Assembly: GCA_964552375.1 (NCBI GenBank)
Contig: CAZKFX010000001.1
Coordinates: forward strand, 3,929-67,928
Reading direction: 5' to 3'
DNA from: an uncultured Candidatus Saccharibacteria bacterium
GTDB lineage: Bacteria; Patescibacteriota; Minisyncoccia; Minisyncoccales; CAZJYT01
Length of the DNA: 64,000 nucleotides
A program made the position numbers and the translations under genes. The notes beneath the pieces were generated by a model. It was not told where the DNA came from, did no database searches, and was given only the letters and a program-made list of their open reading frames with translations. This document shows, in pieces, positions 1 to 49,172 of this stretch (positions within the stretch are counted from its first letter, which is position 1; every line of letters begins with the position of its first letter).

Positions 1-59
1 CTTTTGCCAGTAGAATTTTTCCATCATCAGATAAAATAAGACACTTTTTTCCTAAATTT

Positions 60-2183
60 TTGCATTGGGATGGTTGGTGGAATGAATTTTTAACCTGGTG
101 TACTATTGGTTTTTTTGGAGCTTTCTTTTTAATGCAAGCTAACACTCTTTTTAGACTTCATATTACCGGAAGTTCAATCACAGGAGATGCAGGAATTTTA
201 GGAGATATCATTCTCTACTTTTTGCCTATTTTATTTTTATTAATTGGATTTTTCCTTGCTCTTCAAACCGCCCAGGCAGTAGCAGCTGTAGCAATGTTAG
301 CAGGAGGAGCATTAATGGCAGGAATGGCATTAAAATCATTTGGAAAAAAAATGGCATTGAGGTCAAGTGCAAAAAAGAAAAAATTAGAACAAAAAATGGC
401 AAGAGGAGAATCACTATCAACAAAAGAAAAAGCAGAATTAGCCTTGGCTAAAGTTGGGGAGGCTCCTGCGGTCTTTTATTATGGAATAAGAAAGAGGATA
501 CCCTTTATGAAAAAAGAGACCTGGGGGGATGTAGAAAAAGCACATAGAATGGAAACGAGAAAAGAATTAGAAGGAAAATCTATGGAGAATTTAGCAGAAA
601 CTTATAAAGATAAAACTCAAAGTGAAACTAGAAGACAAGAAGCTGCTTTACATTTAATGAAAAGAGGACGGAAAGGAATTGAAAAATTAAAGGGGGCCGG
701 AGCCACAGATGAAGAAATAGCAAGTTATATGCAAATGGCAGCCAGTGAAGGAAGATGGGAAGACGCTCAATGGTTTGGAACTTTCTTAATAGAAAAGCAT
801 AAAGGAAAGATTGAGGAAGTTAATAAATACTTTGAAGGAATTTTTGATAAAGAAGATAAAGAAAAAATAGCAGCGAGGCTTTCTACTCAAGAAGGAAAAG
901 AAGGAGAGAGGTTAAGAAAATTGGAAGAACACTACAACAACAAAGAAATTGGGGAAGAAGAATACAAAAAGAAAAAAGAAGAAATAGTGAATGAGTATTT
1001 AAAAGAGCATGCTAGTGAGGAATTTTTAGGAATTCTTTCGCCAGAAATATTGGCTTCTGGAATTACTATAACTACTGCCCAACAAAAGGAATTAGCTGAA
1101 GCTCTGGCTAAAATAGATTCTCCTTTGCATGTCCAGGCTCTTGCTAGTCAATTTGGAACCGCATTTACTCATAATTTGCAACAGTATTTAGAAGAACACG
1201 TTGATGAAGTTGGAAAAAATCTAAATACTTATCTTAGAAGCACTCCTGCCCAAGCCTTAGGTTTAAGGCTACCTCAAAAACTTCAAGAATTAGAAGCTTC
1301 AATTGATATGCGATTAGAAAGAGCAATAGAAGAAAAAGAAAATGCTTTACAAGCATTAGTCGTTACAAAAAGAGAGTTATCTTCAATCCAAGATCCGGCA
1401 AGAAAAAGAGAACTTCAAGCTAAAATAAAAGAGCTTGAAAAAACTTATGGCACCGAAGAAGAGATTCAAAAACAGATAAAAGCATTAACTGCTACTCGAG
1501 TCAATTTACACAAAATGAGCGGAAGAGAACTAATAGATTTAGGAAAGTTGCACGGTGTAGAAATAGAATTACCAAAAGAGGAAGAAGAAAAAGTAACAAT
1601 AAAAGGAGGAGAGGAAACAAAAAGACAACCTTCTTCAACTTCTTTCACTCCAACTCCTCCAGTTTCTCCTCCGCCTTCATCTGAAGAAAGAACACCTCCT
1701 CCAACTAAACCGGCACCAAGACCAACTACTACTCAAAGAATTAAAGAAATAGAAAAAGAGATAAAAGAGTTAGAAAGGGTAAAAAGCCAAATTAAAAGAT
1801 TACAAGACGAAAAAGAGGCTGTTTTAAGAGCTCCTCACATTTCACCTGAAGATAAGAAAAAAAGAAAAATGAAATTGGATGCTCAGATTTCTAAAATTTT
1901 AAAACCAACTGGAATTGAAAAACCAGAAGATTTGGAGGGAAAAATAAAAGAAATGGAAGAAAAAAGACAAAAGCTGATTGAGAGGGAAATAGAAATAAGA
2001 AATAAAATAAAGGAAATGAAAGATTTATCTTCATTAGATATCCAAAAAGAAATAGACAAAATAGAAAAAGAGCTAAGTGAAACATCAGAAAGAGAAATTG
2101 AAAAAAGAGAAAGATTAAAAGAGTTAAAAGAGAGATTAAAAGAACTAAAAGAAAGAAAAGAAAGAGTAGAAAGGCAAGCTTAA
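60..2183 (+). CDS. Membrane-anchored coiled-coil protein (2-3 N-terminal TM helices, long K/E-rich coiled coil, Pro/Thr-rich linker). TTG start as called by the ORF track; frame stays open to the window edge, so may be 5'-partial
   Basis: Hydrophobic N-terminus (ILYFLPILFLLIGFFLAL, AAVAMLAGGALMAGMAL); heptad-like K/E-rich body; PTPPVSPPPSSEERTPPPTKPAPRPTTT linker; no in-frame stop between nt 3 and 60. Confidence 0.5.
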   Translation: MHWDGWWNEFLTWCTIGFFGAFFLMQANTLFRLHITGSSITGDAGILGDIILYFLPILFLLIGFFLALQTAQAVAAVAMLAGGALMAGMALKSFGKKMALRSSAKKKKLEQKMARGESLSTKEKAELALAKVGEAPAVFYYGIRKRIPFMKKETWGDVEKAHRMETRKELEGKSMENLAETYKDKTQSETRRQEAALHLMKRGRKGIEKLKGAGATDEEIASYMQMAASEGRWEDAQWFGTFLIEKHKGKIEEVNKYFEGIFDKEDKEKIAARLSTQEGKEGERLRKLEEHYNNKEIGEEEYKKKKEEIVNEYLKEHASEEFLGILSPEILASGITITTAQQKELAEALAKIDSPLHVQALASQFGTAFTHNLQQYLEEHVDEVGKNLNTYLRSTPAQALGLRLPQKLQELEASIDMRLERAIEEKENALQALVVTKRELSSIQDPARKRELQAKIKELEKTYGTEEEIQKQIKALTATRVNLHKMSGRELIDLGKLHGVEIELPKEEEEKVTIKGGEETKRQPSSTSFTPTPPVSPPPSSEERTPPPTKPAPRPTTTQRIKEIEKEIKELERVKSQIKRLQDEKEAVLRAPHISPEDKKKRKMKLDAQISKILKPTGIEKPEDLEGKIKEMEEKRQKLIEREIEIRNKIKEMKDLSSLDIQKEIDKIEKELSETSEREIEKRERLKELKERLKELKERKERVERQA

Positions 2184-2244
2184 AAGTTTAAAAAAAATTG
2201 GTGAGATTTGATTTTTTCTCTAAAAAAAGCTATTTTTATATAGT

Positions 2245-2634
2245 ATGAGAAAATATACGCCAGAAGATGCCTGGAGAGCTTATGAACAATTGCCCCAAGA
2301 GATAAAGAAAGTAATTTTTTCGGTAGATACCTCCGAGACAATTGAAAAAATTTGTGTTAGAAATAATATAAAAAGAGAAAAAAGCTCTTTGTTAGCAGAA
2401 CAAATAGGATATGTCTTGTTGGGGCTTTTTCCACCAGAGGAATTTAAAGAATGGCTTTATGAAGAATTTGGAAAAGAAAAGGGAAAGTTAATTTCACATG
2501 ATATTTTTAGGTTTATTTTTTTCCCGATAAAAAATGAACTAGAGGAAATTTATAAAACAGAAGTAATTAGTTTGCCAAAAGCTAAAATTTCTCCTCCCCC
2601 AAAAAGAGATATTTATAGAGAACCGATAGAATAA
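2245..2634 (+). CDS. Hypothetical protein
   Basis: Intact ORF in operon context upstream of T4SS-like genes; no recognisable motif. Confidence 0.3.
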   Translation: MRKYTPEDAWRAYEQLPQEIKKVIFSVDTSETIEKICVRNNIKREKSSLLAEQIGYVLLGLFPPEEFKEWLYEEFGKEKGKLISHDIFRFIFFPIKNELEEIYKTEVISLPKAKISPPPKRDIYREPIE

Positions 2635-2636
2635 AA

Positions 2637-3053
2637 ATGCCCTTTATTGTTCCTAAGTTTATTGAAAAAGAAGCAAAAATTGTAGGTCCTTTGACTTTCA
2701 GACAATTTGGCTTTTTCCTTTTTGCGGGTGTCATTGCTTTTTTCTTGTATTTTACAATTGGCAAAAAAAATCTTCCTTTGTTTTTGATAATTATAGGACC
2801 AGTAATAGCTATAGCAATGATTTTTGCATTTGGAAAGGTAGAAGGGAGAGATTTTCCAGTTTTTTTAAAAAATTTTTTGTCCCACCAACAATCTCCAAAA
2901 ATGTTTTATTTTCAAAAAAAGACAATAGCTCCTGAAATTTTGCATTTTAAAATTAAAAAAGGAGAAGAAGAAAAAAAAGAAATGGAGCCTGCAAAAGGTT
3001 TTACAAAAACAAGTTTGCAAAAAATGTTTGTTGAAATTGAAACCAAAAAATAG
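2637..3053 (+). CDS. VirB3/PrgI-like small two-TM protein (T4SS inner-membrane component candidate)
   Basis: N-terminal ...KIVGPLTFRQFGFFLFAGVIAFFLYF.. plus a second TM helix; sits immediately upstream of the VirB4 homologue, as in Gram-positive type-IV systems. Confidence 0.45.
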   Translation: MPFIVPKFIEKEAKIVGPLTFRQFGFFLFAGVIAFFLYFTIGKKNLPLFLIIIGPVIAIAMIFAFGKVEGRDFPVFLKNFLSHQQSPKMFYFQKKTIAPEILHFKIKKGEEEKKEMEPAKGFTKTSLQKMFVEIETKK

Positions 3054-3059
3054 CATTTT

Positions 3060-3689
3060 ATGGCAAAAGCTCCCAGTCAGCAATTTTTAGAGATAAAACA
3101 AATTAGAGATGGAGTGATGATATTGAAAGACGGAAGTTTAAGAAAGATTTTGGCTGTTTCTTCTTTAAATTTGGCAGTGAAGTCTAAAGAAGAACAAGAA
3201 GCCATTTTTTATCAATTTCAAAATTTCTTAAATTCTTTAGATTTTTTCTGTCAAATAATTGTTCAATCTCAAAGATTAAATATTACAGGATATCTAGAAG
3301 AATTAGAAAAATTAGAACAAAAACAACCAAATGAACTTTTAAAATTCCAAACTAGAAATTATCGCCAGTTTATCCAAAAATTAGTAGCTACAGGAACGAT
3401 TATGAATAAAAATTTCTTTTTGGTAGTTCCCTTTTATATGTCAGAACTTAAAGAAGTAATTCCCTCAAAAAAGGCAGGCAAAGGAGAGATGGCAGAACTT
3501 AAATTTCAATTGGCAAAAAATCAACTTGAACAAAGAGCTGAATTTTTAATATTAGGTTTAAGGAGGTGTGGTTTAAATGCAGCTCCCCTAAATAGTGAGC
3601 AATTAATTGAGCTTTTGTGGAATTTTTATCATCCAAAAGAAGCAGAAATGGGATATTATCCTTCTATTCCTTCTGAAATAATAAAATAA
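3060..3689 (+). CDS. VirB4/TraC-family protein, N-terminal domain (separate ORF)
   Basis: IRDGVMILKDGSLRKILAVSSLNLAVKSKEEQEAIFYQFQNFLNSL resembles the N-terminal region of PrgJ/TcpF/VirB4 proteins; ends TAA at 3687-3689, 1 nt before the ATG of the ATPase ORF. Confidence 0.5.
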   Translation: MAKAPSQQFLEIKQIRDGVMILKDGSLRKILAVSSLNLAVKSKEEQEAIFYQFQNFLNSLDFFCQIIVQSQRLNITGYLEELEKLEQKQPNELLKFQTRNYRQFIQKLVATGTIMNKNFFLVVPFYMSELKEVIPSKKAGKGEMAELKFQLAKNQLEQRAEFLILGLRRCGLNAAPLNSEQLIELLWNFYHPKEAEMGYYPSIPSEIIK

Positions 3690-3690
3690 A

Positions 3691-5538
3691 ATGAAGCTTC
3701 AAATTGCTAAAATTTTAAATAAATTTTTAAAAAGGAAAAAGCAAGCAAAAAAGTTAACTCTTCCTGTAGGAAAAGAGGAAGAATTAAAATTAGCAGATTT
3801 TATTGCCCCTCCCTCAGTTAAAATATTCCCAAATTATATCCAATTAGGAGAAAGATTAGCTAAAAGTTATTTTGTCTTTTCTTATCCTCGTTATTTAACT
3901 GCTGCCTGGGTCGCTCCTGTTATAAATTTAGATGTTCCTCTTTTAATGTCTTTTTTTATTCATCCTACCGATACAGGCTATATTTTAAAGAAACTCCAAA
4001 AAAGACTTACTGAAGTTCAGGCAGAAATTGCAGAAAGAGAAGAAAAAGGATTAATTAGAGATCCAACTTTGGAGACAGCTTATAAAGACATTGAGGAATT
4101 AAGAGATAAACTTCAGACAGGGCAAGAGAGAATGTTTAGATTTGGTCTTTATTTGACTGCTTTTGGAGATAGTGAAAGAGAATTAAAAGAGGTTGAAACT
4201 ACTTTAAGATCAATCTTGGAAGCAAAATTAGTCTACATTAAACCTTGTCTTTATCAGCAAAAACAAGGACTTCACTCTTGTTTTCCTTACGGTTTAGATC
4301 AATTAATGACTCATCATTTAATGAATACTTCTACCCTTTCAAGTATTTTTCCTTTTGTCTCTTTTGATTTAAGTGCAAATGAAGGAATTCTCTATGGGAT
4401 TAATCAACACAACAAATCTTTGGTTTTATTCAATAGATTTAGTTTAGAAAATGCTAATATGGTTGTCTTTGCAAAATCAGGTTCTGGTAAAAGTTATGCT
4501 GTCAAATTAGAAACCTTAAGACTGTTAATGACTGGTGTAGAAGTAATTATTATTGATCCTGAAAATGAATATAAACCCTTAGCAGAAGCTGTTGGAGGTT
4601 CTTTTATTAATATTTCTCTAAGTTCTCCCCATCATATTAATCCTTTTGATTTGCCAGAAAAATTAAGGCCAGATGAAAACCCAGAAGATGTTTTGCGTTC
4701 AAATATTATTAATCTGGTAGGTTTGATGCGTTTAATGTTAGGTGGATTAACCCCTGAAGAAGATGCAATAATGGATAGGGCTTTAACTGAGACTTATGCT
4801 GCAAAAGATATTACTCCAGAAACCAATCCTTCAACCTGGAAAGATAATACTCCCTTAATGGAGGATTTAGAAAGTGTTTTAGAAGGAATGGAGGGGGCAG
4901 AATCAATTTTGAAAAGATTGAGAAAATTCACCAAAGGAACTTATGCTCAATTTTTCAACCAACCTACTAATGTATCTTTGGATAAACCATTAATAGTCTT
5001 TGGAATTAGAGATTTAGAAGATGAATTAAGACCAATGGCAATGTTTATAATTATGAGATACATTTGGAATAAAGTAAGATCAGAACTTAAAAAAAGAATT
5101 TTGGTAGTAGATGAAGCCTGGTGGTTAATGCAATACGAAGACTCAGCTTCATTTTTGTTTGGATTGTGTAAAAGAGGAAGAAAATATGGACTGGGTGTCA
5201 CCACCATTACCCAAGATGTTAATGATTTTATGAAATCTACTTATGGCCAACCAATTATTACTAACTCAGCCTTGCAATTTTTAATGAAACAATCTCCAGC
5301 AACTATTGATGTAGTTCAAAAAGTTTTCAATCTAACTGAAGAAGAAAAGCATTTGCTTTTGGGAGCAGCAGTTGGAGAAGGTCTCTTTTTTGCAGGACCA
5401 AAACATGTTTTTTTAAGAGTAGAGGCTTCCTATGCAGAACATCAAATTATTACAACTTCTCCTGAAGAACTCAAAAAAATTAGAGAGAGAAAAGAAAAAA
5501 TGGAAAAATTAAAAAAAGAAGGAGAGAGAGAAATTTAA
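3691..5538 (+). CDS. virB4: VirB4/TraC/TrbE-family conjugal-transfer-type ATPase (ATPase domain)
   Basis: Walker A FAKSGSGKSYAVK; IIDPENEY; Walker B VVDEAWW; overall VirB4 layout. Confidence 0.8.
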   Translation: MKLQIAKILNKFLKRKKQAKKLTLPVGKEEELKLADFIAPPSVKIFPNYIQLGERLAKSYFVFSYPRYLTAAWVAPVINLDVPLLMSFFIHPTDTGYILKKLQKRLTEVQAEIAEREEKGLIRDPTLETAYKDIEELRDKLQTGQERMFRFGLYLTAFGDSERELKEVETTLRSILEAKLVYIKPCLYQQKQGLHSCFPYGLDQLMTHHLMNTSTLSSIFPFVSFDLSANEGILYGINQHNKSLVLFNRFSLENANMVVFAKSGSGKSYAVKLETLRLLMTGVEVIIIDPENEYKPLAEAVGGSFINISLSSPHHINPFDLPEKLRPDENPEDVLRSNIINLVGLMRLMLGGLTPEEDAIMDRALTETYAAKDITPETNPSTWKDNTPLMEDLESVLEGMEGAESILKRLRKFTKGTYAQFFNQPTNVSLDKPLIVFGIRDLEDELRPMAMFIIMRYIWNKVRSELKKRILVVDEAWWLMQYEDSASFLFGLCKRGRKYGLGVTTITQDVNDFMKSTYGQPIITNSALQFLMKQSPATIDVVQKVFNLTEEEKHLLLGAAVGEGLFFAGPKHVFLRVEASYAEHQIITTSPEELKKIRERKEKMEKLKKEGEREI

Positions 5539-6251
5539 TTTGTTTTGAAAATCAATTTTTGTTGAAAAATAGAAAAAAGAGTGCTTGATAACCAATACAA
5601 AGAAAGGGCGCAAGGCAGTTTTAGTAAAACTAAAAGAGTAAAAAGAGGAAAAAGAATAATCATTTCTTTTTGAAAAATATCTAAAATTTTACTCATTTGA
5701 TCTTTCTTTTGTTGAGAAAAAGAAAAAGGCTGCATTTTAAATTGAATAAACTGAAAAGCAGTTGCCAAAAAAGCTAAAAAGAAAGCTGGCCAATAATATT
5801 GTATTGTCTGAGGGTCTTTTTGAATAAAAAATGAAAGTGAAAGATTTATTTTTCCTAAAAATAATGGCTCAAAATCAAAAGATTGAACTCCTTCCCAAAA
5901 CAATCTAAACAAAGCTAAAAAAATAGGAATTTGCAAAATAGAAAAAAGACAACCTGAAAAAGGATTAAATTTTTCTTTTTTGTAAAGCTCTAAAATAGCT
6001 TTCATTTGTTTTTCTTTGTCTTCTTTGTGTTTTTCTTGAATTTCTTTTACTTTAGATTGAATTTGAGATAAACTCTTTTGAGATTTTATTGCCTTAAAAG
6101 AAAGAGGGGAAAGAATTAATTTAATTAAAATTGTAAAAATTAAAAGAGCTATTCCGAAATCTTTAATGGGGAGAATTTGATAAAGAAAAATTAAGGCCTT
6201 TAAAAGAGGAAAATAGAAAAAATCAATGATGGGATTGTGTAAAAAATTCAT
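5535..6251 (-). CDS. yidC: Membrane protein insertase YidC (short form)
   Basis: KEKFNPFSGCLFSILQIPIFLALF matches the YidC NP..GCLP.L.Q.PIF.AL signature; downstream of yidD-rnpA-rpmH. Confidence 0.85.
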   Translation of the reverse strand: MNFLHNPIIDFFYFPLLKALIFLYQILPIKDFGIALLIFTILIKLILSPLSFKAIKSQKSLSQIQSKVKEIQEKHKEDKEKQMKAILELYKKEKFNPFSGCLFSILQIPIFLALFRLFWEGVQSFDFEPLFLGKINLSLSFFIQKDPQTIQYYWPAFFLAFLATAFQFIQFKMQPFSFSQQKKDQMSKILDIFQKEMIILFPLFTLLVLLKLPCALSLYWLSSTLFSIFQQKLIFKTN

Positions 6252-6257: not shown

Positions 6258-6467
6258 TTAAGGAAAATCTATTCCTCCAGGATGCCACAAAAAACATTTT
6301 TTTATTCTTTTTATAGTCTTTAAAACTCCTTTTAAAACCCCGTATTTTTTAATAGCTAAAAAAGAATATTCTGAACAAGAAGGAAAAAATCTACAGTTTT
6401 TCCCCAAAAAAGGAGAAATAAAAATTTGATAAAATCTAATTGCCTTCAAAATTAATTCTTGAAGCAT
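6258..6467 (-). CDS. yidD: Membrane protein insertion efficiency factor YidD
   Basis: CRFFPSCSEY ... HPGGIDFP signature. Confidence 0.85.
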   Translation of the reverse strand: MLQELILKAIRFYQIFISPFLGKNCRFFPSCSEYSFLAIKKYGVLKGVLKTIKRIKKCFLWHPGGIDFP

Positions 6468-6796
6468 TTTGTTTTTTGAAAGAGTTTTTGAATTGTCTTT
6501 TCAATCTCTCTAAATTTTAATTTTTCAATCCCAGGTAAAGCTATAAAAATTCCTTTCAGGCCTGGTTTTAATAAATCAAGTTTTAATCTTACTATCTCTG
6601 CCATTTGTCTTTTTAGTCTATTCCTTATTGTCGCTTTTTTTGAAACTTTTTTTGAAATTAAAAAAGCAAATTGACAAATACTATTTTTTGTTTCCAAAAA
6701 CCTAAAAAATAAAAAATCTTCTTTGGCCTTTTTTCCTTCTTTAAATATTCTCTCAAAATCTTTCCTCTTTGAGAGCCGGTTTTTTTTAGCCAACAT
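6452..6796 (-). CDS. rnpA: RNase P protein component
   Basis: N-terminal KKNRLSKRKDFERIFKEGKK; sits between rpmH and yidD. Confidence 0.8.
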   Translation of the reverse strand: MLAKKNRLSKRKDFERIFKEGKKAKEDFLFFRFLETKNSICQFAFLISKKVSKKATIRNRLKRQMAEIVRLKLDLLKPGLKGIFIALPGIEKLKFREIEKTIQKLFQKTKCFKN

Positions 6797-6802: not shown

Positions 6803-6937
6803 TTATACTGTAAGTCTCCATCTTCCCTTTGCTCTCCTCCTAGCCAAAATTCTCCTTCCAGCCTTTGTTTTCATTCTCTTTCTAAAACCATGGGTCCTCT
6901 TTCTCTTTTTTACTTTTGGACGATATGTGATTGACAT
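6803..6937 (-). CDS. rpmH: 50S ribosomal protein L34 (ORF-track start trimmed to the internal Met)
   Basis: [44 protein letters not shown] matches the L34 consensus; ATG at 6937-6935 (minus strand). Confidence 0.85.
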
Positions 6938-23192: not shown

Positions 23193-23747
23193 ATGAGAAA
23201 AATTTTTCTCTTTCTCTTTATTTTGAAAATTTTATTTTTTCCTTTAATTTGTCAGGGAAAATTGAGGTATTATGAGGCATGTGAGAGTGTCTCAAGTGGA
23301 GTTTGTATGACTCCTACTTATACCGTTTGTTATGATGGTTTGGTGCCATGCGGAAAAGATGTTTGGTATGCTCAAGGATCTCATCCAGATTGTCCTACTT
23401 CCTCGCTTCCAATGAGTGTTACTACTACTCATTGTCAGCTTTGTCATTTTTTTATTATGTTTAATGGCGCAGTTGATTTTCTCATTTGGGAAATTGTTTT
23501 ACCTTTGGCGGTTTTAATGCTAATTGTAGGAGGAATTTTATATATTTTAGCAATTTTAGAGTTTGTTCCTGGAGGACCCCAGACTGTAAATCAGGCAAAA
23601 CAAGTAATTAGTGCTGTTTTCATTGGTTTATTTATTGTCTTTTCTGCCTGGTTTTTGGTCAATTTATTTTTCACCTTAATTGGAGTAGCTGATTGGACAG
23701 GATTAAAAGAAGGCTGGTTTAAAATTGATTGTCCAGTAGAACTATGA
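23193..23747 (+). CDS. Secreted Cys-rich domain with C-terminal 2-TM 'GG..V..AK..I' hairpin module (paralogue of 47592 and 48642 proteins)
   Basis: Signal-like N-terminus; about 12 Cys; LMLIVGGILYILAILEFVPGGPQTVNQAKQVISAVFIGLFIVF. Confidence 0.4.
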   Translation: MRKIFLFLFILKILFFPLICQGKLRYYEACESVSSGVCMTPTYTVCYDGLVPCGKDVWYAQGSHPDCPTSSLPMSVTTTHCQLCHFFIMFNGAVDFLIWEIVLPLAVLMLIVGGILYILAILEFVPGGPQTVNQAKQVISAVFIGLFIVFSAWFLVNLFFTLIGVADWTGLKEGWFKIDCPVEL

Positions 23748-32560: not shown

Positions 32561-33295
32561 GTGATAATTAAAAAAGTAAAGACAAGGGTTTTTTTACCTC
32601 CAAAAGATGATTTATTTTCTTTAATCAAAGAATCTCTGACTAATTTAAAAGAAAATTCAGTGATTGTTTTTACTTCAAAAATTGTGTCTATTTGGGAAGG
32701 GAGATGTATAAGAAAAAGTTTAGTTAAAAATAGAGAAGAATTAATTAAAAAAGAGGCAAAATTTTATATTAAAGAAAATAATTCTTTTTTAACCATTAAA
32801 CACAATAGCATTTTACCTTCAGCAGGTATTGATGAATCAAACGGAGATGAATATTACATTCTTTTACCAAAACACCCCTTTTTAAGTGCCAAAAAAATTT
32901 ATTATTTTATCAAAACTACTTACAAATTAAAAAAATTTGGTATAATTATCTCTGATAGCCATACAATTCCCCTAAGAAAAGGAACAATAGGAATTTCTTT
33001 GGCATATTGGGGAATAAAGCCCTTAAGAGATTATAGAGGAAAGAAAGATATTTTTGGAAGAAAATTGAAAGTTACTCAATTAAACATTGTAGATTCATTA
33101 GCTGCAATAGCTAATTTAGCAATGGGAGAAGGCAAAGAAAGGACACCAATTGTGATAATTGAAAATTTAAAAGAAGTAGAATTTGAAGAAAAAGCAGGAA
33201 AAATTAATTACTTAAAAATAAATAGAGAAAGAGATATTTATAAACCTTTGCTTTCAGTATTTAAAAATGGAAAAAGTAAACATAAGGAAAAGTAA
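32561..33295 (+). CDS. F420-0:gamma-glutamyl ligase (CofE)-family protein
   Basis: VIVFTSKIVSIWEGR; SAGIDESN; GIIISDSH..PLRKGTIGISL; KDIFGRKLKVTQLNIVDSLAAIANLAMGEG matches the CofE-family architecture. Confidence 0.6.
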   Translation: MIIKKVKTRVFLPPKDDLFSLIKESLTNLKENSVIVFTSKIVSIWEGRCIRKSLVKNREELIKKEAKFYIKENNSFLTIKHNSILPSAGIDESNGDEYYILLPKHPFLSAKKIYYFIKTTYKLKKFGIIISDSHTIPLRKGTIGISLAYWGIKPLRDYRGKKDIFGRKLKVTQLNIVDSLAAIANLAMGEGKERTPIVIIENLKEVEFEEKAGKINYLKINRERDIYKPLLSVFKNGKSKHKEK

Positions 33296-33986: not shown

Positions 33987-35207
33987 ATGGCAAAAAAAAT
34001 TTTTTTGAGTGCCATTGATATTGGCTCTTCAAAAATTAAATTAGCTATAGCTAGAGAAGGAAAAGAAGGAATTGAGATTTTAAGTAATTTACAAATTCCT
34101 TCTTTCGGAGTGAGAAGGGGGGTGGTGATAAACCCAGAAAAGACCGCTGAGAAAATTGATTTTTTAATTGAAAAAGCTCAAGAAGAAACCGGAGGAAAAA
34201 TTAGAGAAGTTATCGTTAATATTGGTGGTGCCCATCTTTTTTCCAAAAATTCTCGGGGATTAGTTTCTGTATCCAGGGCGGATCAGAAAATTTCTCAACA
34301 AGATATTAACCGAGTTTTGGAAGCTTCAAAGACAGTTTCTTTGGGTTCCAATCAAGAAATTTTAGATATTTTTCCTAAAGAATTTATTGTTGATGGACAA
34401 CGAGGAATTAAAAACCCCCTTGATTTAAATGGGGTGAGATTAGAAGTAGAGGCAGTGGTTGTAGGAGGTTTTTCGCCTTATATTAGAAATTGTCGCGAAA
34501 CTATTTCTCTTTGTGATCTTTCTTTGATAGATTTGGTGCCCACTCCTTTGGCTAGTGCCTTGGGAGTTTTAAGGTCTAGAGAGAAAGAATTAGGAGTGGC
34601 GGTTGTAGATATCGGAGCTGGAACCACAAATTTATGTGTTTTTGAAGAACAAAATTTAATTCATTTAGCTGTCTTTCCAATGGGATCTGCAAATATTACT
34701 AATGATATTGCTATTTGTCTAAAAATAGATATTGATTTAGCAGAAAGAATAAAAATTAAATATGGAAGTTGCCTTAAAGAAAAAGCAGAAAAGAGATTAC
34801 ATAAAAATGAGAAAATAAAAATAGAAACCAAAGAAATCTTTTCTTTCAGTAAAAAATTGTTAGCTCAAATAATTGAAGCAAGAATTGTGGAGATTTTTAA
34901 AGAAGTTCAAAAGGAATTAAAGAAAATTGGCAAAGACCAAAAACTTCCTGCAGGAGTAGTTTTAACTGGAGGAGGTGCCAAACTTCCCTATTTAAAAGAG
35001 TTGGCTAAAAAATATTTGAGATTGCCCTGTAGAATAGGATATCCAATAGGTTTTCCTTCTCAATTTAATGATCTTTCTTTTTCTGTTTTGGCAGGTTTGA
35101 TTTTAAGAACTGTTGAAAGAGAGGACTTTTTCCCTGAAGAGAAGGTTTTAAATGGAAAAAAAATATTTGAGCATATTAAAAAAATTTTTAAGTTTTTTTT
35201 ACCTTAA
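33987..35207 (+). CDS. ftsA: Cell division protein FtsA
   Basis: Actin-like ATPase IFLSAIDIGSSKIKLAIA ... VVDIGAGTTN; followed by ftsZ. Confidence 0.85.
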   Translation: MAKKIFLSAIDIGSSKIKLAIAREGKEGIEILSNLQIPSFGVRRGVVINPEKTAEKIDFLIEKAQEETGGKIREVIVNIGGAHLFSKNSRGLVSVSRADQKISQQDINRVLEASKTVSLGSNQEILDIFPKEFIVDGQRGIKNPLDLNGVRLEVEAVVVGGFSPYIRNCRETISLCDLSLIDLVPTPLASALGVLRSREKELGVAVVDIGAGTTNLCVFEEQNLIHLAVFPMGSANITNDIAICLKIDIDLAERIKIKYGSCLKEKAEKRLHKNEKIKIETKEIFSFSKKLLAQIIEARIVEIFKEVQKELKKIGKDQKLPAGVVLTGGGAKLPYLKELAKKYLRLPCRIGYPIGFPSQFNDLSFSVLAGLILRTVEREDFFPEEKVLNGKKIFEHIKKIFKFFLP

Positions 35208-35213: not shown

Positions 35214-36152
35214 ATGAGGTATCAACCCAAAATTAAAGTAATAGGAATTGGAGGGGCTGGAGGAAATACGATTTCCAGATTAAAAAAACTTAAAGCTGAA
35301 GGGGTAGAATTAATAGCTTTAAATACTGATGCTCAAGATTTGAAAAAGACAAAAGCTCATTTGAAAATTAGAATTGGAAAGAAATTAACTCAGGGATTAG
35401 GAACTGGAATGGATTGGCAAACAGGCGAAAGGGCAGTTATGGAACAAAAAGAAGAAATAAAAGAGGTTTTAAAAGATGCAGATTTAGTTTTTATTACTTT
35501 AGGATTAGGAGGAGGAACAGGTTCTGGCGGAGCCCCAGTGATTGCTGAGATTTGTAGAGAACTGAAAATTTTAACTTTGGTTGTAGCAACAATTCCTTTT
35601 TCTTTTGAGGGAGAATTAAGAAAAAAGATAGCCCAAATTACAATAGAAAAATTAAGACAAAAAGTGGATAGTTTAATTTTAATTCCCAATGATAAACTTT
35701 TGGAAAGTTTTGATTTTAAAATTTCTGTTTCTGAGGCTTTTTGGAGGGCTGATGAGATATTGAGAGAGGCAATTTTAGGAATTATAGATTTGGTAAGTGG
35801 CCCTGGTTTAATTAATGTTGATTTTGGCAACCTTAAAACGATTTTAAAAAATTCTGGAAAGGCTTATTTTGGTATTGGAAAAGGTTTTGGCGAAAAGAGA
35901 ATAGAAAAAGCAACAAATTCAGCTCTGTTTTCACCTTTAATAGAAATTTCTCCTAAAAAAGCCAAAGGAGTTTTGTTCAATGTTTCAGGTAGAGAGATTT
36001 CTTTGGGGGAGGTTGAACAAATAGCCCAATTTCTTTCAGAAAAAGTTCATCCCGAAGCTAAAATAATTTTTGGAGCCAAAGAGGATTTAAGCTTGAAGAA
36101 AGGAGAAATAAAAGTAATTTTAATTTTAACTAATTTTAATGACTCTTTTTGA
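35214..36152 (+). CDS. ftsZ: Cell division protein FtsZ (ftsA-linked copy; short, no conserved C-terminal peptide, T7 loop NVDFGN)
   Basis: GIGGAGGN; GLGGGTGSGGAP; T7 loop GLINVDFGNLKTIL; 312 aa ending ..ILTNFNDSF. Confidence 0.85.
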   Translation: MRYQPKIKVIGIGGAGGNTISRLKKLKAEGVELIALNTDAQDLKKTKAHLKIRIGKKLTQGLGTGMDWQTGERAVMEQKEEIKEVLKDADLVFITLGLGGGTGSGGAPVIAEICRELKILTLVVATIPFSFEGELRKKIAQITIEKLRQKVDSLILIPNDKLLESFDFKISVSEAFWRADEILREAILGIIDLVSGPGLINVDFGNLKTILKNSGKAYFGIGKGFGEKRIEKATNSALFSPLIEISPKKAKGVLFNVSGREISLGEVEQIAQFLSEKVHPEAKIIFGAKEDLSLKKGEIKVILILTNFNDSF

Positions 36153-36747: not shown

Positions 36748-37851
36748 ATGGCAAAAATTACTCTTTCTCTTATTAAAGCAGATATTGGTTCTGTTGGAGG
36801 ACATCTTAAACCAAGTGAAAAATTGTTAGACGCAGTAAAAAAGTATATAAAACAAAAAGGTAAAGATTTTATAATTGATTATTATGTTGGTTTTACTGGC
36901 GATGATGTTGCTATTTTAACAACTCATAGATTAGGAAAAAGAAATCCTAAAGTTCACAAACTTTGCTGGAATGCCTTTTTAGCTGGAACCAAGGTAGCTA
37001 AATCTCAGGGATTATATGGAGCAGGACAAGATTTGTTAGTTTCTGCTTTTTCTGGAAATGTTAAGGGAATGGGGCCCCAAGTAGCTGAAATGGAATTTGA
37101 AGAAAGACCCTCAGAACCATTTTTAATATTCTGCGCTGATAAAACCGAACCCGGAGCCTTTAATTTACCTGTTTATTTAGCTTTTACAGATCCGATGCAT
37201 TGTGCTGGTTTGATTTTATCTCCAAATTTAAAAAAGGGATTTAAATTTGTGATTATGGATGTTAGCTATACTAAAGGAGACAGAATAATTGAATTGGTAA
37301 GCCCAGAAGAAATTTATGATATTGCTTGTTTGTTAAGAGATACGGGGAGATTTGTAATTGAATCTGTTTGGTCAAGAGCAACTGGAGAGCAAGCTGTAAT
37401 AGCAAGCACTACTAGATTGCACAATATTGCTGGAAAATATGTAGGAAAAGACGATCCGGTAATGATTGTAAGAACTCAAAAAGATTTTCCAGCTACTGGT
37501 GAAATTCTTTCTCCATATACAATTGGGCATTTTGTTGCTGGGTTTATGAGAGGATCTCACAATGGACCATTAATGCCAGTAAAGAAGAATTCCCATATTT
37601 CTTTTTTTGATGGTCCTCCAGTGGTTTCTTGTTTGGCTTTTTCTGTAAAAAATGGAAAATTGACAGAACCAGTAGATTGTTTTGACCACCCCTATTGGGA
37701 TTGGGTAAGAGATAGAATTTCTCAAAAAGCTCAAGAAATTAGAAGACAGGGATTTTTTGGCAATGCCATGCTTCCAATGTCAGAATTAGAATATACTGGA
37801 GTAATGGAAAGCTTAAAAAAATTAGAAAAGAAATTCTTCATTAGAAAATAA
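36748..37851 (+). CDS. fbp: Archaeal-type bifunctional fructose-1,6-bisphosphate aldolase/phosphatase (FBPase class V)
   Basis: N-terminal MAKITLSLIKADIGSVGGH matches the class V IKADIGS..GH start; about 367 aa. Confidence 0.75.
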   Translation: MAKITLSLIKADIGSVGGHLKPSEKLLDAVKKYIKQKGKDFIIDYYVGFTGDDVAILTTHRLGKRNPKVHKLCWNAFLAGTKVAKSQGLYGAGQDLLVSAFSGNVKGMGPQVAEMEFEERPSEPFLIFCADKTEPGAFNLPVYLAFTDPMHCAGLILSPNLKKGFKFVIMDVSYTKGDRIIELVSPEEIYDIACLLRDTGRFVIESVWSRATGEQAVIASTTRLHNIAGKYVGKDDPVMIVRTQKDFPATGEILSPYTIGHFVAGFMRGSHNGPLMPVKKNSHISFFDGPPVVSCLAFSVKNGKLTEPVDCFDHPYWDWVRDRISQKAQEIRRQGFFGNAMLPMSELEYTGVMESLKKLEKKFFIRK

Positions 37852-37855: not shown

Positions 37856-38500
37856 ATGCTTTCTCTGAAAGCAAAGATTAGGAAAGAGAGAAAAAAAAGA
37901 GCTTTAAAGAAATTAAGGGAAAAAGGACTAATTCCTGCTATTTTATATGGCTCTAAAATTAAAAATATTTGTTTGACTTTAGACTTAAAAGAATTTGAAA
38001 AAGTATATAAAAAAGCAGGCGAGACAGAGATGATAAAATTGGAGGTTGATGATGGAAAAGAGTATTTGGTTTTAATAAAAGAAGTAGCTCTCCATCCTTT
38101 GACAGACAAACCCCTCCATGTTGATTTTTATCATCCAGAATTAAAAGAAGAAATTGAGGTAGTTTTACCTTTAGTTTTTGAAGGAGAGGCTCCTGCTGTC
38201 AAAGAATTGGGTGGTACTTTAGTGAAAAAACTTTCTGAGATAGAGGTAAGAGGTCTTTTACAAAAACTTCCAAAAGAGATAAAAGTAGACATTAGCTCTC
38301 TCTGCACATTTGATGACCGAATTTTGGTTGGAGATTTAAAATTACCAGAAGGAGTAAAGGTTTTAAGAGATTCAAAAGAAATTTTAGCTTTCGTAGCTCC
38401 TCCAGAAAAAGTAGAAGAGGAGTTGGAAAAACCTCCAAAAGAAGAAATTCAAGAGGTTGAGGTGATAAAGGAAAAGAAAAAAGAAAGTGAAGGCGCCTAA
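37856..38500 (+). CDS. rplY: 50S ribosomal protein L25 / general stress protein Ctc
   Basis: RKKRALKKLREKGLIPAILYG; two-domain Ctc form. Confidence 0.8.
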   Translation: MLSLKAKIRKERKKRALKKLREKGLIPAILYGSKIKNICLTLDLKEFEKVYKKAGETEMIKLEVDDGKEYLVLIKEVALHPLTDKPLHVDFYHPELKEEIEVVLPLVFEGEAPAVKELGGTLVKKLSEIEVRGLLQKLPKEIKVDISSLCTFDDRILVGDLKLPEGVKVLRDSKEILAFVAPPEKVEEELEKPPKEEIQEVEVIKEKKKESEGA

Positions 38501-42292: not shown

Positions 42293-43021
42293 TTATAAAT
42301 TAGCTTTTTGAAGAGATTTAATTATTTTATCTAAGTCTCCTTCTAAAACATCTTCTAAATTGTGCCAGCTTTTTTTTATTCTATGGTCAGTAATTCTGTT
42401 TTGGGGGAAATTATAAGTTCTAATTTTTTCAGCCCTTTCTGAAGAACCTATTTGACTTTTTCTCTGTGTTTGAATTTTTTCTAATTCTTCCCTTTTTTGT
42501 TTTTCTAATAATTTAGCCTCCAAAATAGATAGAGCATTTTCTTTGTTTTGAAACAAACTTCTTTCTGTTTGAGAAGTTACTACTATTCCTGTAGGTAAAT
42601 GGGTAATTCTTATAGCGGTCATTCTTTTGTTTACATATTGGCCTCCAGGCCCTGAGGCTTTATAAGTTTCAATTTTTAATTCATTAGGATTAATTTTAAT
42701 TTCTGCTTTTTTTGGTTTTGGTAAAACAACTACCGAAGCAGTAGAAGTATGAATTCTTCCTGATTTTTCTGTAATAGGAATTCTTTGGACTCTATGGACT
42801 CCTCCTTCATATTTTAGCTGTGAAAAAGCATTTTCTCCTTCAACCTCAAAAACAATTTTTTTAATTCCATTCAAATCACTATAGTGACAATCTAAGACTT
42901 TTAGTTTCCAGTTTTTCTTTTGACAAAATTTAGAGTACATTCTAAAAAGATCTCTTGCAAACAGAGAAGCTTCCTCTCCACCGGCCCCCGCTCTTATTTC
43001 TAAAATTACTTTTTCTTTCAT
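42293..43021 (-). CDS. prfA: Peptide chain release factor, RF1-type (PxT motif), lacking N-terminal domain 1
   Basis: GGQ motif [10 protein letters not shown]; codon-recognition PIT tripeptide in [17 protein letters not shown]; starts at the position equivalent to about residue 113 of E. coli RF1; start overlaps the rpmE stop (ATGA). Confidence 0.75.
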
Positions 43022-45706: not shown

Positions 45707-45726
45707 AAAAAATTTAATTTTTTATT

Positions 45727-47595
45727 TTAAGGCGGAGGAATTATTCCTTCTCCATAATCTCCTGACATATGAGTACCCAAAAGACAAGTGTCAAAATCAA
45801 AACTTTCATATCCATCAAAGCAAGGATCACCAGGAATTCCTCCCCAGCTATTTTTTAAAATCCAATATCTTTTAACATTATTATACCCTACCAATACCAT
45901 TGCATGATTGGCACCTGGCAGACATTTGTAAATATCACACCCATCATCATCCAAACTTCCTGTGGTTCCCCCTCCAACACCAACCTTTACATACAAGGGC
46001 CCATATTTAATTAAACCATATTGAAGTTCCCCTCTGTTGTTTAAAATTTTTGGGGTGACACTATCAGTATTGGTTATTTTCCATAGCTCAATTGGACTAG
46101 CATCATCACAAGTTGCTGGACAAGGAGAATCAGTTTGCAAATAACCATAGCAATCTTCTGTTGGCACACCATTTGTCTTAATAAAATTGAAAGCACAATT
46201 TCCACCATTACAATCTCCAATAGGACAACAATCTGAAATTAAATACTGTTCAGACAAATCAGGCGTTAAAGAGCTGTCTCCTTTTTCTATTTTATATTTT
46301 GCTTCCATACTTCCTATAGTTGCAAAAGCCCAACAAGCTCCACAAGCTCCTTGATTTTTTACTGGGGTCATCCAATTTTCTCCATTTACATTTCTCCAGT
46401 CCCAAAATTGAGGAGGAATGTGAATAGTGATAGTGTCTGTAGCTACTACTCCTGAGGCGTCAGTTACCTTTAATGTAATAATATGGTCTATTACTGTTGA
46501 AGTAGCAACTCCAGTTAAATCATTTTTAACAAAACTACTAGAAGCGCCAATAACTCCATCTATATTAGAAGTCCATTCTATAGTATAAGGAAGAGTACCT
46601 CCTGTAATTAAGGCTTGAAAATTTATTGGGTCTCCTTGGGCAAAAGCAGTATCATCAGGAGGAGAGGAAATAGTCGCAGTTAAAAAAGGAGGATTAACCT
46701 TTACCTGAGCAGAAGCAACAGCTGTTTTTCCACAATTGTCAGTTACGCGCAAAAGAGGATGATAAGTGCCAGGAATATTGTAAATATAAGTGGTGATTCC
46801 AGAAATGAAGCTTTGCCAGTCAAAAATACCATCTCCTTCAAAATCCCATTCATATTTCACTATTTGACCTTGTCCTGGGGGTGGATCAAAAGAATAGGTG
46901 CTTCCATCAAAATAAACTGTTTCACCTGCTACTACAACAACACTTAGAGCAGTTGGAGAAGGATTTTTTCCTACTCTTGGTTTGGGGACAGGAGGAAGGT
47001 CTTGAATGCAATCTGTTCCTGTCCAACAATAACCTGAATCACAGGCATAACAATTTTCTCCTGCTCCACAACAAACACCTCCAGTGATATGAGAATTGGA
47101 AGGAGAGAAAGTTAGACATCCTGGTATGGCACTACAGGTTGGAGTGCAACCAGAGGAGGTTATTTTAAAATTAGCCACATTTTCTGTTTCGGTGGCAAAT
47201 CCCAAAATATCTTTTGCTTTAATATCAATATAATAATTACCAACAGGAGCACCACTTGAGTCCCAACTATTTCCATATTTTCCATCATTAGCTAAATCAT
47301 CGTTATGAGATCCATCATCATAAAGCTGAACAGTTGCTATATTTGTTTCGTCTGGATTTTGTAAAAAAGCAACAACTGAACTGACTCCAGAGATATCTGT
47401 TACTTTAGCATTAATAATAAAAGTAGCTCCTTGGTCTGCGCTTGAAGGTGAAACACTTACATCAGAAACTGTTGGATAAGGTTGATTTGCTATTTCCAAA
47501 GAAGGTTTTTGAGAAAAAGAAATTTTTATACAAAAAATTCCAAAAATGATTAAAATTAAAAATAACAAAGGAAAAAATTTACTTTTTTTCATCAT
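45727..47595 (-). CDS. Secreted multidomain papain-like (C1) cysteine peptidase with N-terminal beta-sandwich, Cys-rich and PKD-like domains
   Basis: NQGACGACWAFAT (active-site Cys), NHAMVLVGY (His), ILKNSWG (Asn); PKD-like YEWDFEGDG; signal peptide. Confidence 0.7.
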   Translation of the reverse strand: MMKKSKFFPLLFLILIIFGIFCIKISFSQKPSLEIANQPYPTVSDVSVSPSSADQGATFIINAKVTDISGVSSVVAFLQNPDETNIATVQLYDDGSHNDDLANDGKYGNSWDSSGAPVGNYYIDIKAKDILGFATETENVANFKITSSGCTPTCSAIPGCLTFSPSNSHITGGVCCGAGENCYACDSGYCWTGTDCIQDLPPVPKPRVGKNPSPTALSVVVVAGETVYFDGSTYSFDPPPGQGQIVKYEWDFEGDGIFDWQSFISGITTYIYNIPGTYHPLLRVTDNCGKTAVASAQVKVNPPFLTATISSPPDDTAFAQGDPINFQALITGGTLPYTIEWTSNIDGVIGASSSFVKNDLTGVATSTVIDHIITLKVTDASGVVATDTITIHIPPQFWDWRNVNGENWMTPVKNQGACGACWAFATIGSMEAKYKIEKGDSSLTPDLSEQYLISDCCPIGDCNGGNCAFNFIKTNGVPTEDCYGYLQTDSPCPATCDDASPIELWKITNTDSVTPKILNNRGELQYGLIKYGPLYVKVGVGGGTTGSLDDDGCDIYKCLPGANHAMVLVGYNNVKRYWILKNSWGGIPGDPCFDGYESFDFDTCLLGTHMSGDYGEGIIPPP

Positions 47596-48503
47596 ATATT
47601 ATCTAATTTACTACAATTTCCCCAATTATCACAAGCTTTAATATCTACATAATAGGGGCCTTCAGGAAAAGAAGCAGAATTCCAGACATTTCCAAAAATA
47701 CTGTCAGAACTTGAGACATCACTGTGGAGTCCATCGTCAAACAATTCTATTATTTCAAGAACAGTATTGTCAGGTCTCTGCAAAAGAGCATAAGCAGACG
47801 CAATAGGGTTGGCATCGGTTATTTTGACTCTAATTTCAAACAATGTTCCTTGAGGTGCAGAAATAGGAGTAATGTGAGTATTTGTAATATTAGGAGGAGT
47901 AGTGTCTATAAAACCAAAACCGAGAGCTACAAAACATGCAGGACATCCTACTGCTGACCCACAGTCTACATGGGTTTCTCCACAATCTTTTACACCATCT
48001 GAACAATGGTTACAATTTTGGCAATACAAAGAAGAAGGATTGCTGACATCTTCAAAAATCCAGACACCCCCATTACAATAAAGCTGAAGGGATAAATCAC
48101 AATCTCCAGGAGTACAAGTTAATCCAGCAGTAGTCATTGTGCCAGTAGAAGGAGCGACACCAAACAATTTACCACTTATGTTAATTACTACCTTTATAGA
48201 AGAAACAATAAAAATTCCTATTGTAGCCACCAGTATTAATTCTTTTGCTTTTTCAACTCTTTCTGGATTTCCACCAGACATTAAAAGAAAAAAAGCAGCA
48301 CCAATTAAAAGAAAAGTTCCAACAATTACTCCTACCCAAAACAAAAAATTAGTAAAAGTAGAGACCAATTTTTGCCAAATAGGATAAGCACTTGGCCTTT
48401 TTATTACTATAGAAAAGGCTGAAAGAAAAAAGGGCAAAAATAGTAAAAATAACAAAAAATAAAGAAAAAATCTTTTTGAGAAGGTTTTAAAAATGGAAAG
48501 CAT
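47592..48503 (-). CDS. Membrane protein: N-terminal TM + 2-TM 'GG..V..AK..I' module, C-terminal beta-sandwich domain homologous to the N-terminal domain of the 45727 protease
   Basis: FLLIGAAFFLLMSGGNPERVEKAKELILVATIGIFIV; the C-terminal ISAPQGTLFEIRVKITD...LFDDGLHSD...GNVWNS...YYVDIKACD aligns with the protease's N-terminal domain. Confidence 0.45.
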   Translation of the reverse strand: MLSIFKTFSKRFFLYFLLFLLFLPFFLSAFSIVIKRPSAYPIWQKLVSTFTNFLFWVGVIVGTFLLIGAAFFLLMSGGNPERVEKAKELILVATIGIFIVSSIKVVINISGKLFGVAPSTGTMTTAGLTCTPGDCDLSLQLYCNGGVWIFEDVSNPSSLYCQNCNHCSDGVKDCGETHVDCGSAVGCPACFVALGFGFIDTTPPNITNTHITPISAPQGTLFEIRVKITDANPIASAYALLQRPDNTVLEIIELFDDGLHSDVSSSDSIFGNVWNSASFPEGPYYVDIKACDNWGNCSKLDNI

Positions 48504-48641
48504 AAAATTATTTTTTAAATTTTATCATTATCTTGGAAAGATTGCAAGAATAATTGATGTTGACAAAATTGAAAACATTTTTTATTTTTTAAATATAAAA
48601 AAGGTCGTAGGAAAAGGTCGCAAAATAAAAATTAAAAAGAT

Positions 48642-49172
48642 ATGAAAAAAGGAATTGCTATTTTAGGAACAATTTGTCTTTTGGGAGTTTTAATTTTGCC
48701 AGCAATAAGTGAAGCTGCAAGGACAACGACAAACTGTTGTCAGATTAGAAGGACATTTTCTTTTAATGGAAAGACTTGGTTGTCTGGAAGATGTTATGGA
48801 GAAATAGGAATAGAATATGGTACGACAGCTGTTACTACTACTGCTACAGGATGTGAAACACCAGGAGGAGTTGTACTATGTGAAGCCGCACCAGGACTTG
48901 GAGTGGAGCCAGGTAAAAATGTAGAACAAAGACCTGACTGGGGTGCTGGATGTATGCTAAATAGTGTCTATCGGATTTCAGACTTTATTTTCATGATTTT
49001 GATTGTAGTGGCAGTAATTATTGGTTTGGCAGGAGGTTATAATATTTTGACTGCTGGAGGTGATGCTGAAAAAGTGAACAAAGGAAGAGACTTGATATTG
49101 TATGCTATTATTGGAATGGTAGTAGCTTTCTTTGCAAGAGCTATTCCTTCAATTGTATCTCTGTTGATATAA
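48642..49172 (+). CDS. Secreted Cys/Thr-rich domain with C-terminal 2-TM 'GG..V..AK..I' hairpin module (pilin-like candidate)
   Basis: Signal peptide ..AISEAA; IVVAVIIGLAGGYNILTAGGDAEKVNKGRDLILYAIIGMVVAFF. Confidence 0.4.
   Translation: MKKGIAILGTICLLGVLILPAISEAARTTTNCCQIRRTFSFNGKTWLSGRCYGEIGIEYGTTAVTTTATGCETPGGVVLCEAAPGLGVEPGKNVEQRPDWGAGCMLNSVYRISDFIFMILIVVAVIIGLAGGYNILTAGGDAEKVNKGRDLILYAIIGMVVAFFARAIPSIVSLLI

Follow-up and report, generated by a model that had tools for sequence, protein, structure and literature searches.

The 64-kb stretch of DNA analysed here (contig CAZKFX010000001.1, positions 3,929 to 67,928; hereafter the window) begins with a cluster of five plus-strand genes, filling bases 1-5538. 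We consider this cluster to be the cytoplasmic-membrane core of a type IV secretion system (T4SS) of the Patescibacteria type, a vertically inherited chromosomal machine originating from the monoderm conjugation apparatus (MPF-FATA), with a probability of about 0.85. Nearly all ultra-small Patescibacteria (CPR) possess such a cluster beside dnaA. The genes encode, in order, a VirB6-like membrane protein, a small soluble protein here called p129, a PrgI/VirB3-like protein, a TrsD-like protein and a VirB4-family ATPase (Table 1). They are co-directional with gaps of 61, 2, 6 and 1 nt, and no plus-strand terminator-like site was found inside the cluster. An earlier reading of the sequence, the original prediction, had described four tightly packed co-directional genes. 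The packing and the common direction hold, whereas the count is five, the 129-aa open reading frame (ORF) having been overlooked. The proposal that this is a chromosomal T4SS-like module of small-genome episymbionts is supported by matches to curated profiles and by conserved synteny.

The PrgI-like protein matches the Pfam family PrgI (PF12666) with an E-value of 1.7e-11 and 45 bits against a cutoff of 27. Its two hydrophobic segments are also visible in homologues, in agreement with the earlier description of a small VirB3/PrgI-like protein with two transmembrane (TM) helices. A profile search of the last gene product against VirB4/TraC had been proposed as a test of its identity, and the outcome was significant. 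The 615-aa protein matches Pfam P-loop_TraG (E 4.7e-30, 105 bits against 25.8), as well as AAA_10 and DUF87, and it aligns to positions 161-732 of the 752-position NCBIfam model conju_CD1110 with an E-value of 6.7e-116 (388 bits, cutoff 325). Among PDB sequences it matches the VirB4 C-terminal domain 4ag5 (E 1e-46) and TrwK (E 1.7e-5), and both the Walker A (AKSGSGKS) and the Walker B (ILVVDE) motifs are intact.

The 209-aa TrsD-like protein matches positions 6-171 of the same conju_CD1110 model (E 7.5e-7), positions 107-278 of the 894-position mycoplasma VirB4 model VirB4_plasma of NCBIfam (E 6e-10) and positions 15-175 of the 375-position Pfam model TraC_F_IV. Since the two proteins cover adjoining parts of one model, the TrsD-like protein and VirB4 are, as judged from these alignments, complementary parts of a single canonical VirB4. 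This is the known TrsD plus VirB4 arrangement, and the predicted VirB4-family ATPase divided over two ORFs is thereby borne out. The match to the TrsD model NF041427 is low (E 1.4e-4, 21.8 bits against a cutoff of 200), which by sequence places the protein outside that curated subfamily, as a homologue in architecture and position. It is also the only one of the searched proteins with a match in PHROG, to the N-terminal region of a terminase large subunit (E 3.9e-9), which probably reflects a shared ATPase-type domain.

A VirB4 encoded in two pieces could also be a decaying pseudogene, its A-rich run at 3680-3692 having suffered a frameshift or been misread in sequencing. At the junction a TAA stop codon is followed by one base (A) and an ATG start codon inside this run, and deleting a single A from AAAATAAAATG would join the two frames. 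A fused homologue of 804 aa (P0008) does exist, but it is the only one among the best 120 matches, and the two-ORF form dominates among the thousands of VirB4 homologues, which are 590-615 aa long and 70-75% identical. Moreover, a separate ORF of about 210 aa lies directly upstream of virB4, with a stop-start spacing of a few bases, in 78 of the 80 related genomes compared below. Both proteins are well conserved, and VirB4 is divided in this way in Bacillales plasmids too, as well as in the pGO1 subclass, where the N-terminal part is known as TrsD. A broken gene is thus extremely improbable, and we have rejected this reading. Two patescibacterial VirB4 homologues (P0023 and P0033) are about 1,270 aa long and carry intein and LAGLIDADG domains (PF14890, PF14528), which fits the view of virB4 as a core gene of high conservation.

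The first gene of the cluster is cut by the edge of the window. It had been described as a 707-aa TM-anchored coiled-coil protein encoded at 60-2183, where base 60 is the first start codon chosen by the ORF tool. The frame is, however, open back to base 3, and the translation from there gives an unbroken alignment with residues 243-972 of a homologue of 972 aa (L001:3197-6115; 47% identity, the membrane part nearly identical). A database search returned the full-length protein, P0121, of 961 aa and 100% identical over the whole query. The supposed coiled-coil protein is therefore a truncated view of a polytopic protein with about nine hydrophobic helices in residues 1-350 and a charged tail. 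The portion within the window comprises the final two to three hydrophobic helices, a strongly basic segment directly after them (KSFGKKMALRSSAKKKK) and the roughly 600-aa K/E-rich helical tail (606 aa, 17% Glu, 14% Lys). Because the basic segment precedes it after the last hydrophobic helix, the tail is probably cytoplasmic. The Pro-rich stretch reported earlier as a stalk is present, but not conserved. Even the closest homologue has an unrelated Gly/Arg-rich sequence in its place, which identifies the stretch as a variable linker. In 32 related loci the homologues are 640-830 aa long with seven to nine hydrophobic segments in the first 340 aa, so that P0121 is unusually long, the additional length being in the tail. 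Within the membrane domain, L136, L145, N147, F148, R221, L228, P233, A235, W260 and W267 do not vary in the family alignment.

The best assignment for P0121, given remote similarities together with operon position, appears to be a VirB6-like protein of the "extended VirB6" type, which a 2025 nomenclature review that also highlights the T4SSs of Patescibacteria describes as having a large hydrophilic C-terminal domain (PMC12857230). Its roughly nine hydrophobic helices, where at least five TM helices are expected of a VirB6/TrbL protein, and its place in the same operon as virB3 and virB4 fit this assignment. Two members of the locus set match the TrbL/VirB6 family PF04610 below threshold (best E 7e-7), and two database homologues match nearly the whole profile at 4.2e-5 and 1e-3, with family member P0129 scoring 23.8 bits against the TrbL cutoff of 25.9. 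When an AlphaFold2 (AF2) model of residues 1-409 was searched with Foldseek, the only specific neighbours in the PDB were the TrwI/VirB6 chains of the R388 T4SS, at ranks 2-5 (probability 0.93-1.0, target-normalised TM-score 0.41-0.50, 262-284 aligned columns). Thus the suggestion of a novel stalk or channel component without recognisable family is probably right as to a channel component but not as to novelty.

Several results speak against the VirB6 assignment. The similarity is remote, and formal family membership of P0121 is not established. P0121 itself has no match to PF04610 at E<=1, the AF2 model is of moderate quality (pLDDT 64, pTM 0.56), and the E-values of the Foldseek matches to TrwI/VirB6 are no better than 0.05-0.17. 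Comparison of the family profile with PrgH of pCF10 by hhalign was not significant, which is a weak test given the single-sequence template. The topology of the tail is ambiguous as well: if there are nine helices and the N-terminus is cytoplasmic, the tail would come to lie outside the cell. Further searches gave nothing meaningful for P0121 in Pfam, NCBIfam and PHROG, nothing beyond coiled-coil noise from the tail for the family profile against PDB sequences, and only eight matches for the profile in a set of 5.8 billion proteins, where the word prefilter was probably swamped by hydrophobic words. A precomputed label, PF19590, for the VirB6-like family is unconfirmed, and a literature search on PF19590 found no paper.

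The gene overlooked earlier belongs to a widespread family. In p129, a six-helix domain of about 106 aa is joined through a low-complexity linker, variable among family members, to a C-terminal peptide, D-x-Y-R-E-P-I-E, that is conserved. The protein has no match in Pfam, NCBIfam or PHROG. In a library of 1.84 billion proteins the family has 1676 cluster representatives at E<=1e-3, and its profile hidden Markov model (HMM) finds exactly one copy in the window. Of the 64 loci with enough flank, 55 carry a co-directional copy no more than 6 kb upstream of virB4, usually directly before prgI. The AF2 model is confident (pLDDT 84), and a fold search against the PDB gave no significant neighbour (best E 2.4). 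Comparisons with PrgF and PrgG of pCF10 by hhalign were not significant, again with single-sequence templates and hence a weak test. A conserved terminal peptide on a flexible linker is suggestive of a docking motif, and p129 may act as an adaptor docking on another subunit. One could speculate that in Paceibacteria p129 and the fast-evolving K/E-rich VirB6 tail of 300-600 aa, as two cytoplasmic components specific to the lineage, replace the coupling protein by recruiting substrates or gating the channel, the p129 peptide docking on TrsD/VirB4. We regard this as rather unlikely; if true, it would define a mechanistically distinct T4SS sub-architecture.

As had been stated for the yidC/rnpA/rpmH/dnaA core, these genes lie next to the cluster, which is followed immediately by yidC, yidD, rnpA, rpmH and dnaA. 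All five have strong Pfam matches. The convergent virB4 and yidC genes overlap by 4 nt at their stop codons (5535-5538), which leaves no intergenic room for a terminator between them. DnaA-box-like sites at 6993, 8419 and 8498 flank dnaA. Across the window such boxes are not statistically enriched (18 seen, 16 expected), and the position beside the origin therefore rests mainly on the gene set rpmH-rnpA-yidC/dnaA. An Rfam scan of the window returned five tRNAs only.

The original prediction called for a comparison of synteny, for which 80 species-level genomes or loci of Paceibacteria related to the window were used. The linkage to yidC-rnpA-dnaA is kept in most of them. The conserved order is [VirB6-like] ... 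p129-prgI-trsD-virB4 ... yidC(-)-rnpA(-)-dnaA(+), with virB4 present in 80, trsD in 78, prgI in 76 (in each case directly upstream of trsD), yidC in 64, rnpA in 62 and dnaA in 55 of the loci. It recurs in Nealsonbacteria, Minisyncoccales, Staskawiczbacteria, Wildermuthbacteria and other Paceibacteria. The cultured archaeal parasite Minisyncoccus archaeiphilus (L080) has the same operon, at the very end of its chromosome record, and so offers an experimental system. In most relatives two further genes separate the VirB6-like gene from p129, one for a soluble protein of about 150 aa and one for an SPFH/Band-7 membrane protein. The window and its closest relative, L001, have neither.

VirB4 of the window is 64-85% identical to the VirB4 proteins of these genomes, and the named entries among its top 120 matches are patescibacterial metagenome-assembled genomes. 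The median identity to the window protein is 68.5% for VirB4, 56.0% for DnaA, 55.8% for TrsD and 40.7% for YidC, and VirB4 is therefore more strongly constrained than the replication initiator.

These data bear on the possibility that the cluster is an integrated conjugative element (ICE), or the remnant of one, that lies near the origin by chance. The closest characterised relatives of all recognisable proteins are indeed the conjugation systems of Firmicutes plasmids and ICEs. However, a Pfam scan of the window ORFs of at least 214 aa found no relaxase, type IV coupling protein (T4CP), integrase or recombinase, in agreement with the earlier statement that the module is not obviously conjugative; these ORFs encode housekeeping or surface proteins, and two (38487-40004 and 56788-57528) are without Pfam match. 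The position relative to yidC-rnpA-dnaA is the same in most of the 80 genomes, VirB4 is better conserved than DnaA, and the GC content of the cluster (0.29-0.35) lies inside the range of the window (0.25-0.36). A published phylogeny likewise shows a monophyletic, class-congruent Patescibacteria VirB4 clade nested in MPF-FATA (PMC12102498). An ICE is very improbable in view of the conserved synteny, the lack of mobility genes in the window and the conservation of VirB4, and this reading has been rejected.

How the T4SS core might work can be proposed from the established architecture of such systems, as known from the R388 structure and the Gram-positive literature. PrgI would anchor a hexameric motor of TrsD and VirB4 to the membrane, the VirB6-like protein would form the membrane channel and the base of the stalk, and ATP hydrolysis would power the building of a VirB2-type pilus or conduit that extends toward the host. 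Transposon sequencing by Wang et al. (2023) identified the T4SS genes SEML1_0006-0019 as essential for the epibiotic growth of Southlakia, and these authors put forward protein export or some other role (PMC10633639). By extension the machine described here may serve an epibiotic or parasitic life, and not conjugation, by passing proteins or other macromolecules from one partner to the other upon contact between parasite and host.

A rival to this proposal concerns the direction of transport and not the identity of the parts. Instead of exporting effectors, the machine could take up macromolecules of the host such as DNA or RNA, as the archaeal Ced and the Helicobacter ComB systems do. Searches with VirB4 give matches, weak yet significant, to CedB (E 6.6e-16) and CedD (E 7.4e-6), the ATPases of archaeal DNA import, although these matches are far under the curated cutoffs (58 bits against 700) and the best match is to conjugative VirB4. 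The missing T4CP and relaxase in the window would fit import, as would the lack of nucleotide synthesis in Patescibacteria. In class ABY1 the T4SS is co-located with competence genes (PMC12102498), and a 2026 preprint reports that a related parasite feeds on host RNA, with tubular structures, possibly T4SS pili, at the Minisyncoccota-host interface. On the other hand, deletion of comEC in Southlakia had no effect on viability although the T4SS is essential (reviewed in PMC12857230), and no T4SS of this class in a monoderm bacterium has been shown to import. We therefore hold an importer to be a minority possibility, though one to be taken seriously.

Some points also weigh against the interpretation of the whole cluster as the core of a chromosomal, non-conjugative T4SS. 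The window has no identified VirB8- or VirB1-like gene. Outside the 64 kb seen, the genome could still encode a T4CP or relaxase, and VirD4-like genes are common in Patescibacteria but distant from virB4 (PMC12102498). Placement of VirB4 in the Patescibacteria clade is based on sequence similarity and not on a tree, and a role of a Paceibacteria T4SS in epibiotic growth would follow only by analogy with the essentiality in one Saccharibacterium.

Candidate VirB2-like pilins are encoded in the window 18-45 kb from virB4, two of them above the PF18895 cutoff and one just below. The first (23193-23747) has a signal peptide, a Cys-rich segment and a two-TM pilin domain and adjoins ksgA. It is probably part of the same T4SS, though 18 kb away, and homologues are found near virB4 in 13 other loci. 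The second (48642-49172) has a signal peptide, a Cys-rich segment and a C-terminal pilin domain, a weak match to the mycoplasma ICE pilin-like model NF045849, and homologues near virB4 in 11 loci. The third (47592-48503), just under the cutoff, also matches the NCBIfam model choice_anch_X (E 1.4e-5), with homologues near virB4 in 18 loci. Around the latter two lies a neighbourhood of surface-protein genes (44864-50675), including a PKD and papain-family protease gene co-oriented with the third pilin-domain gene, which could be host-interaction equipment linked to the T4SS. Relatives also have giant proteins of 440-1,190 aa that begin with a T4SS_pilin domain, and whose genes lie upstream of the VirB6-like gene in divergent orientation. 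These proteins resemble pilin-fused surface proteins, and the equivalent region lies just beyond the left edge of the window.

Table 1. Genes of the T4SS cluster, its neighbours and other features (positions refer to the window unless a related locus, L001 or L015, is named)
Feature	Position	Strand	Basis or remark
VirB6-like polytopic membrane protein (best assignment), 3' two-thirds	1..2183	+	last 726 codons of 961-aa P0121
p129, conserved soluble helical protein	2245..2634	+	129 aa; family HMM and alignment
PrgI/VirB3-like small membrane protein	2637..3053	+	138 aa, two TM; Pfam PF12666
TrsD-like protein, VirB4 N-terminal domain	3060..3689	+	209 aa; partial VirB4 models, TrsD model
VirB4-family T4SS ATPase, C-terminal three quarters of canonical VirB4	3691..5538	+	615 aa; Pfam, NCBIfam, PDB
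yidC	5535-6251	-	strong Pfam match
yidD	6258-6467	-	strong Pfam match
rnpA	6452-6796	-	strong Pfam match
rpmH	about 6803-6937	-	strong Pfam match
dnaA	7081-8427	+	strong Pfam match
Candidate VirB2-like T4SS pilin	23193..23747	+	PF18895 T4SS_pilin, E 2.4e-10, 40.8 bits vs 26.6
Candidate pilin-domain protein, Cys-rich, with choice-of-anchor-X C-terminal extension	47592..48503	-	PF18895, E 3.4e-5, 24.3 bits vs 26.6
Candidate VirB2-like T4SS pilin	48642..49172	+	PF18895, E 1.5e-7, 31.8 bits vs 26.6
DUF333 protein	44864-45706	-	
PKD and papain-family C1 protease	45727-47595	-	
BNR/sialidase-like repeat protein	49215-50675	+	
Extra soluble protein, about 150 aa	L015:6414-6893	+	
SPFH/Band-7 membrane protein, about 450 aa	L015:6909-8312	-	opposite strand
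Giant T4SS_pilin-domain protein	L001:84-3224	-	
Giant T4SS_pilin-domain protein	L015:1560-4028	-	
Giant T4SS_pilin-domain protein	L015:234-1547	-	
Fructose-bisphosphate (FBP) aldolase/phosphatase	36748-37851		PF01950, E 6.6e-163
Geranylgeranyl-reductase-like flavoprotein	12258-13421		
F420-0:gamma-glutamyl-ligase-like protein	32561-33295		

Some further genes of the window deserve mention. The 505-aa product of 38487-40004 has weak NCBIfam matches to coiled-coil murein-hydrolase activators and to hydrolases (EnvC, PcsB, NlpC/P60 DIP1281). A role as cell-wall remodelling factor is possible, and it could be an analogue of VirB1. The class-I peptide release factor encoded at 42293-43021 (minus strand) is 242 aa long, begins at position 100 of the PCRF profile and appears to be without domain 1. 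Its gene starts right after rpmE (L31), leaving no space for a missing N-terminal exon in another frame. Two genes of the FtsZ family are present (16144-17310 and 35214-36152): a canonical short FtsZ that follows ftsA (33987-35207), and a divergent 388-aa paralogue with much weaker scores on Tubulin and FtsZ_C. Three genes have an archaeal flavour (the last three rows of Table 1), and the close relatives of the organism include the archaea-parasitising Minisyncoccus and Microsyncoccus.

The retention of a conjugation-derived T4SS as a core gene set in Patescibacteria, with a VirB4 more conserved than DnaA, is the broader implication of this analysis. Adjacent to the origin, better conserved than the replication initiator and essential in the sole species tested, the system probably has a central part in the exploitation of hosts by these ultra-small cells. 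Its significance was recognised in 2023-2025, and the window adds one more ordinary example. What is added here, modestly, is that the apparent coiled-coil protein is a truncated VirB6-like protein, that a widespread p129 family with a conserved peptide is consistently encoded just upstream of prgI, and that Minisyncoccus archaeiphilus has the operon. Of the details, only the long VirB6 tail and the p129 family may be new.

Comparison with characterised systems shows the conjugative ancestry of the parts. The PrgH-PrgI-PrgJ core of Enterococcus pCF10 likewise comprises a VirB6-like protein, a VirB3-like protein and a VirB4 of the same conju_CD1110 family. However, PrgJ is a single fused VirB4 of 796 aa, and pCF10 has no p129 equivalent, as judged from the hhalign comparisons with PrgF and PrgG. 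It also carries adhesins, a relaxase and a T4CP. The three genes trsC-trsD-trsE of the staphylococcal plasmids pGO1 and pSK41 follow the same order, and there too a separate protein corresponds to the VirB4 N-terminal domain. The Geobacillus plasmid pGspE55-1 encodes PrgI, a TrsD-like protein and a DUF87 protein in the same order. These are plasmid conjugation systems with relaxase and T4CP, and their similarity to the window proteins is low, as seen from the TrsD model score and from 25-33% identity in tblastn. R388 TrwI/VirB6 and the extended VirB6 proteins, for example those of Rickettsiales, share with P0121 a polytopic helical membrane domain, possibly of similar fold, and P0121 resembles the extended VirB6 proteins also in its large hydrophilic C-terminal domain. 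In contrast, P0121 has no above-threshold sequence match and belongs to a monoderm, and its tail is a K/E-rich, fast-evolving helical region.

Closer to the window cluster is the T4SS of Southlakia epibionticum ML1, which is also chromosomal, origin-proximal and Gram-positive-like, includes pilins and lacks any recognisable relaxase or coupling protein in its cluster. It belongs to the class Saccharimonadia, and a pilin array and VirB1-like hydrolases lie inside its cluster, whereas in the window the pilin genes are dispersed and the cluster has no hydrolase gene next to it. Southlakia alone is known to require its T4SS. The closest counterpart is the arrangement described for Paceibacteria by Quiñonero-Coronel et al. 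(2025), who searched 3,035 Patescibacteria genomes and found VirB4 in 2,417 of them, together with 2,272 homologues of TrsD, the N-terminal VirB4 homologue of the pGO1 subclass (PMC12102498). In that survey TrsD, PrgI/VirB3, VirB6 and arrays of VirB2-like pilins occur near virB4, relaxases are almost absent, and in Paceibacteria and Microgenomatia the cluster lies near dnaA, dnaN, rnpA, rpmH and ksgA. The window shares with it a VirB4 of about 600 aa, a separate TrsD-like protein, PrgI/VirB3, VirB2-like pilins, the absence of a nearby relaxase and the proximity to dnaA/rnpA/rpmH and ksgA. There is no essential difference. In comparison with most relatives the VirB6 tail is longer, and the genes for the 150-aa and SPFH proteins are absent. 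The cluster is accordingly an ordinary member of the already known Patescibacteria T4SSs, whose dnaA-proximal position is likewise part of the work published in 2023-2025.

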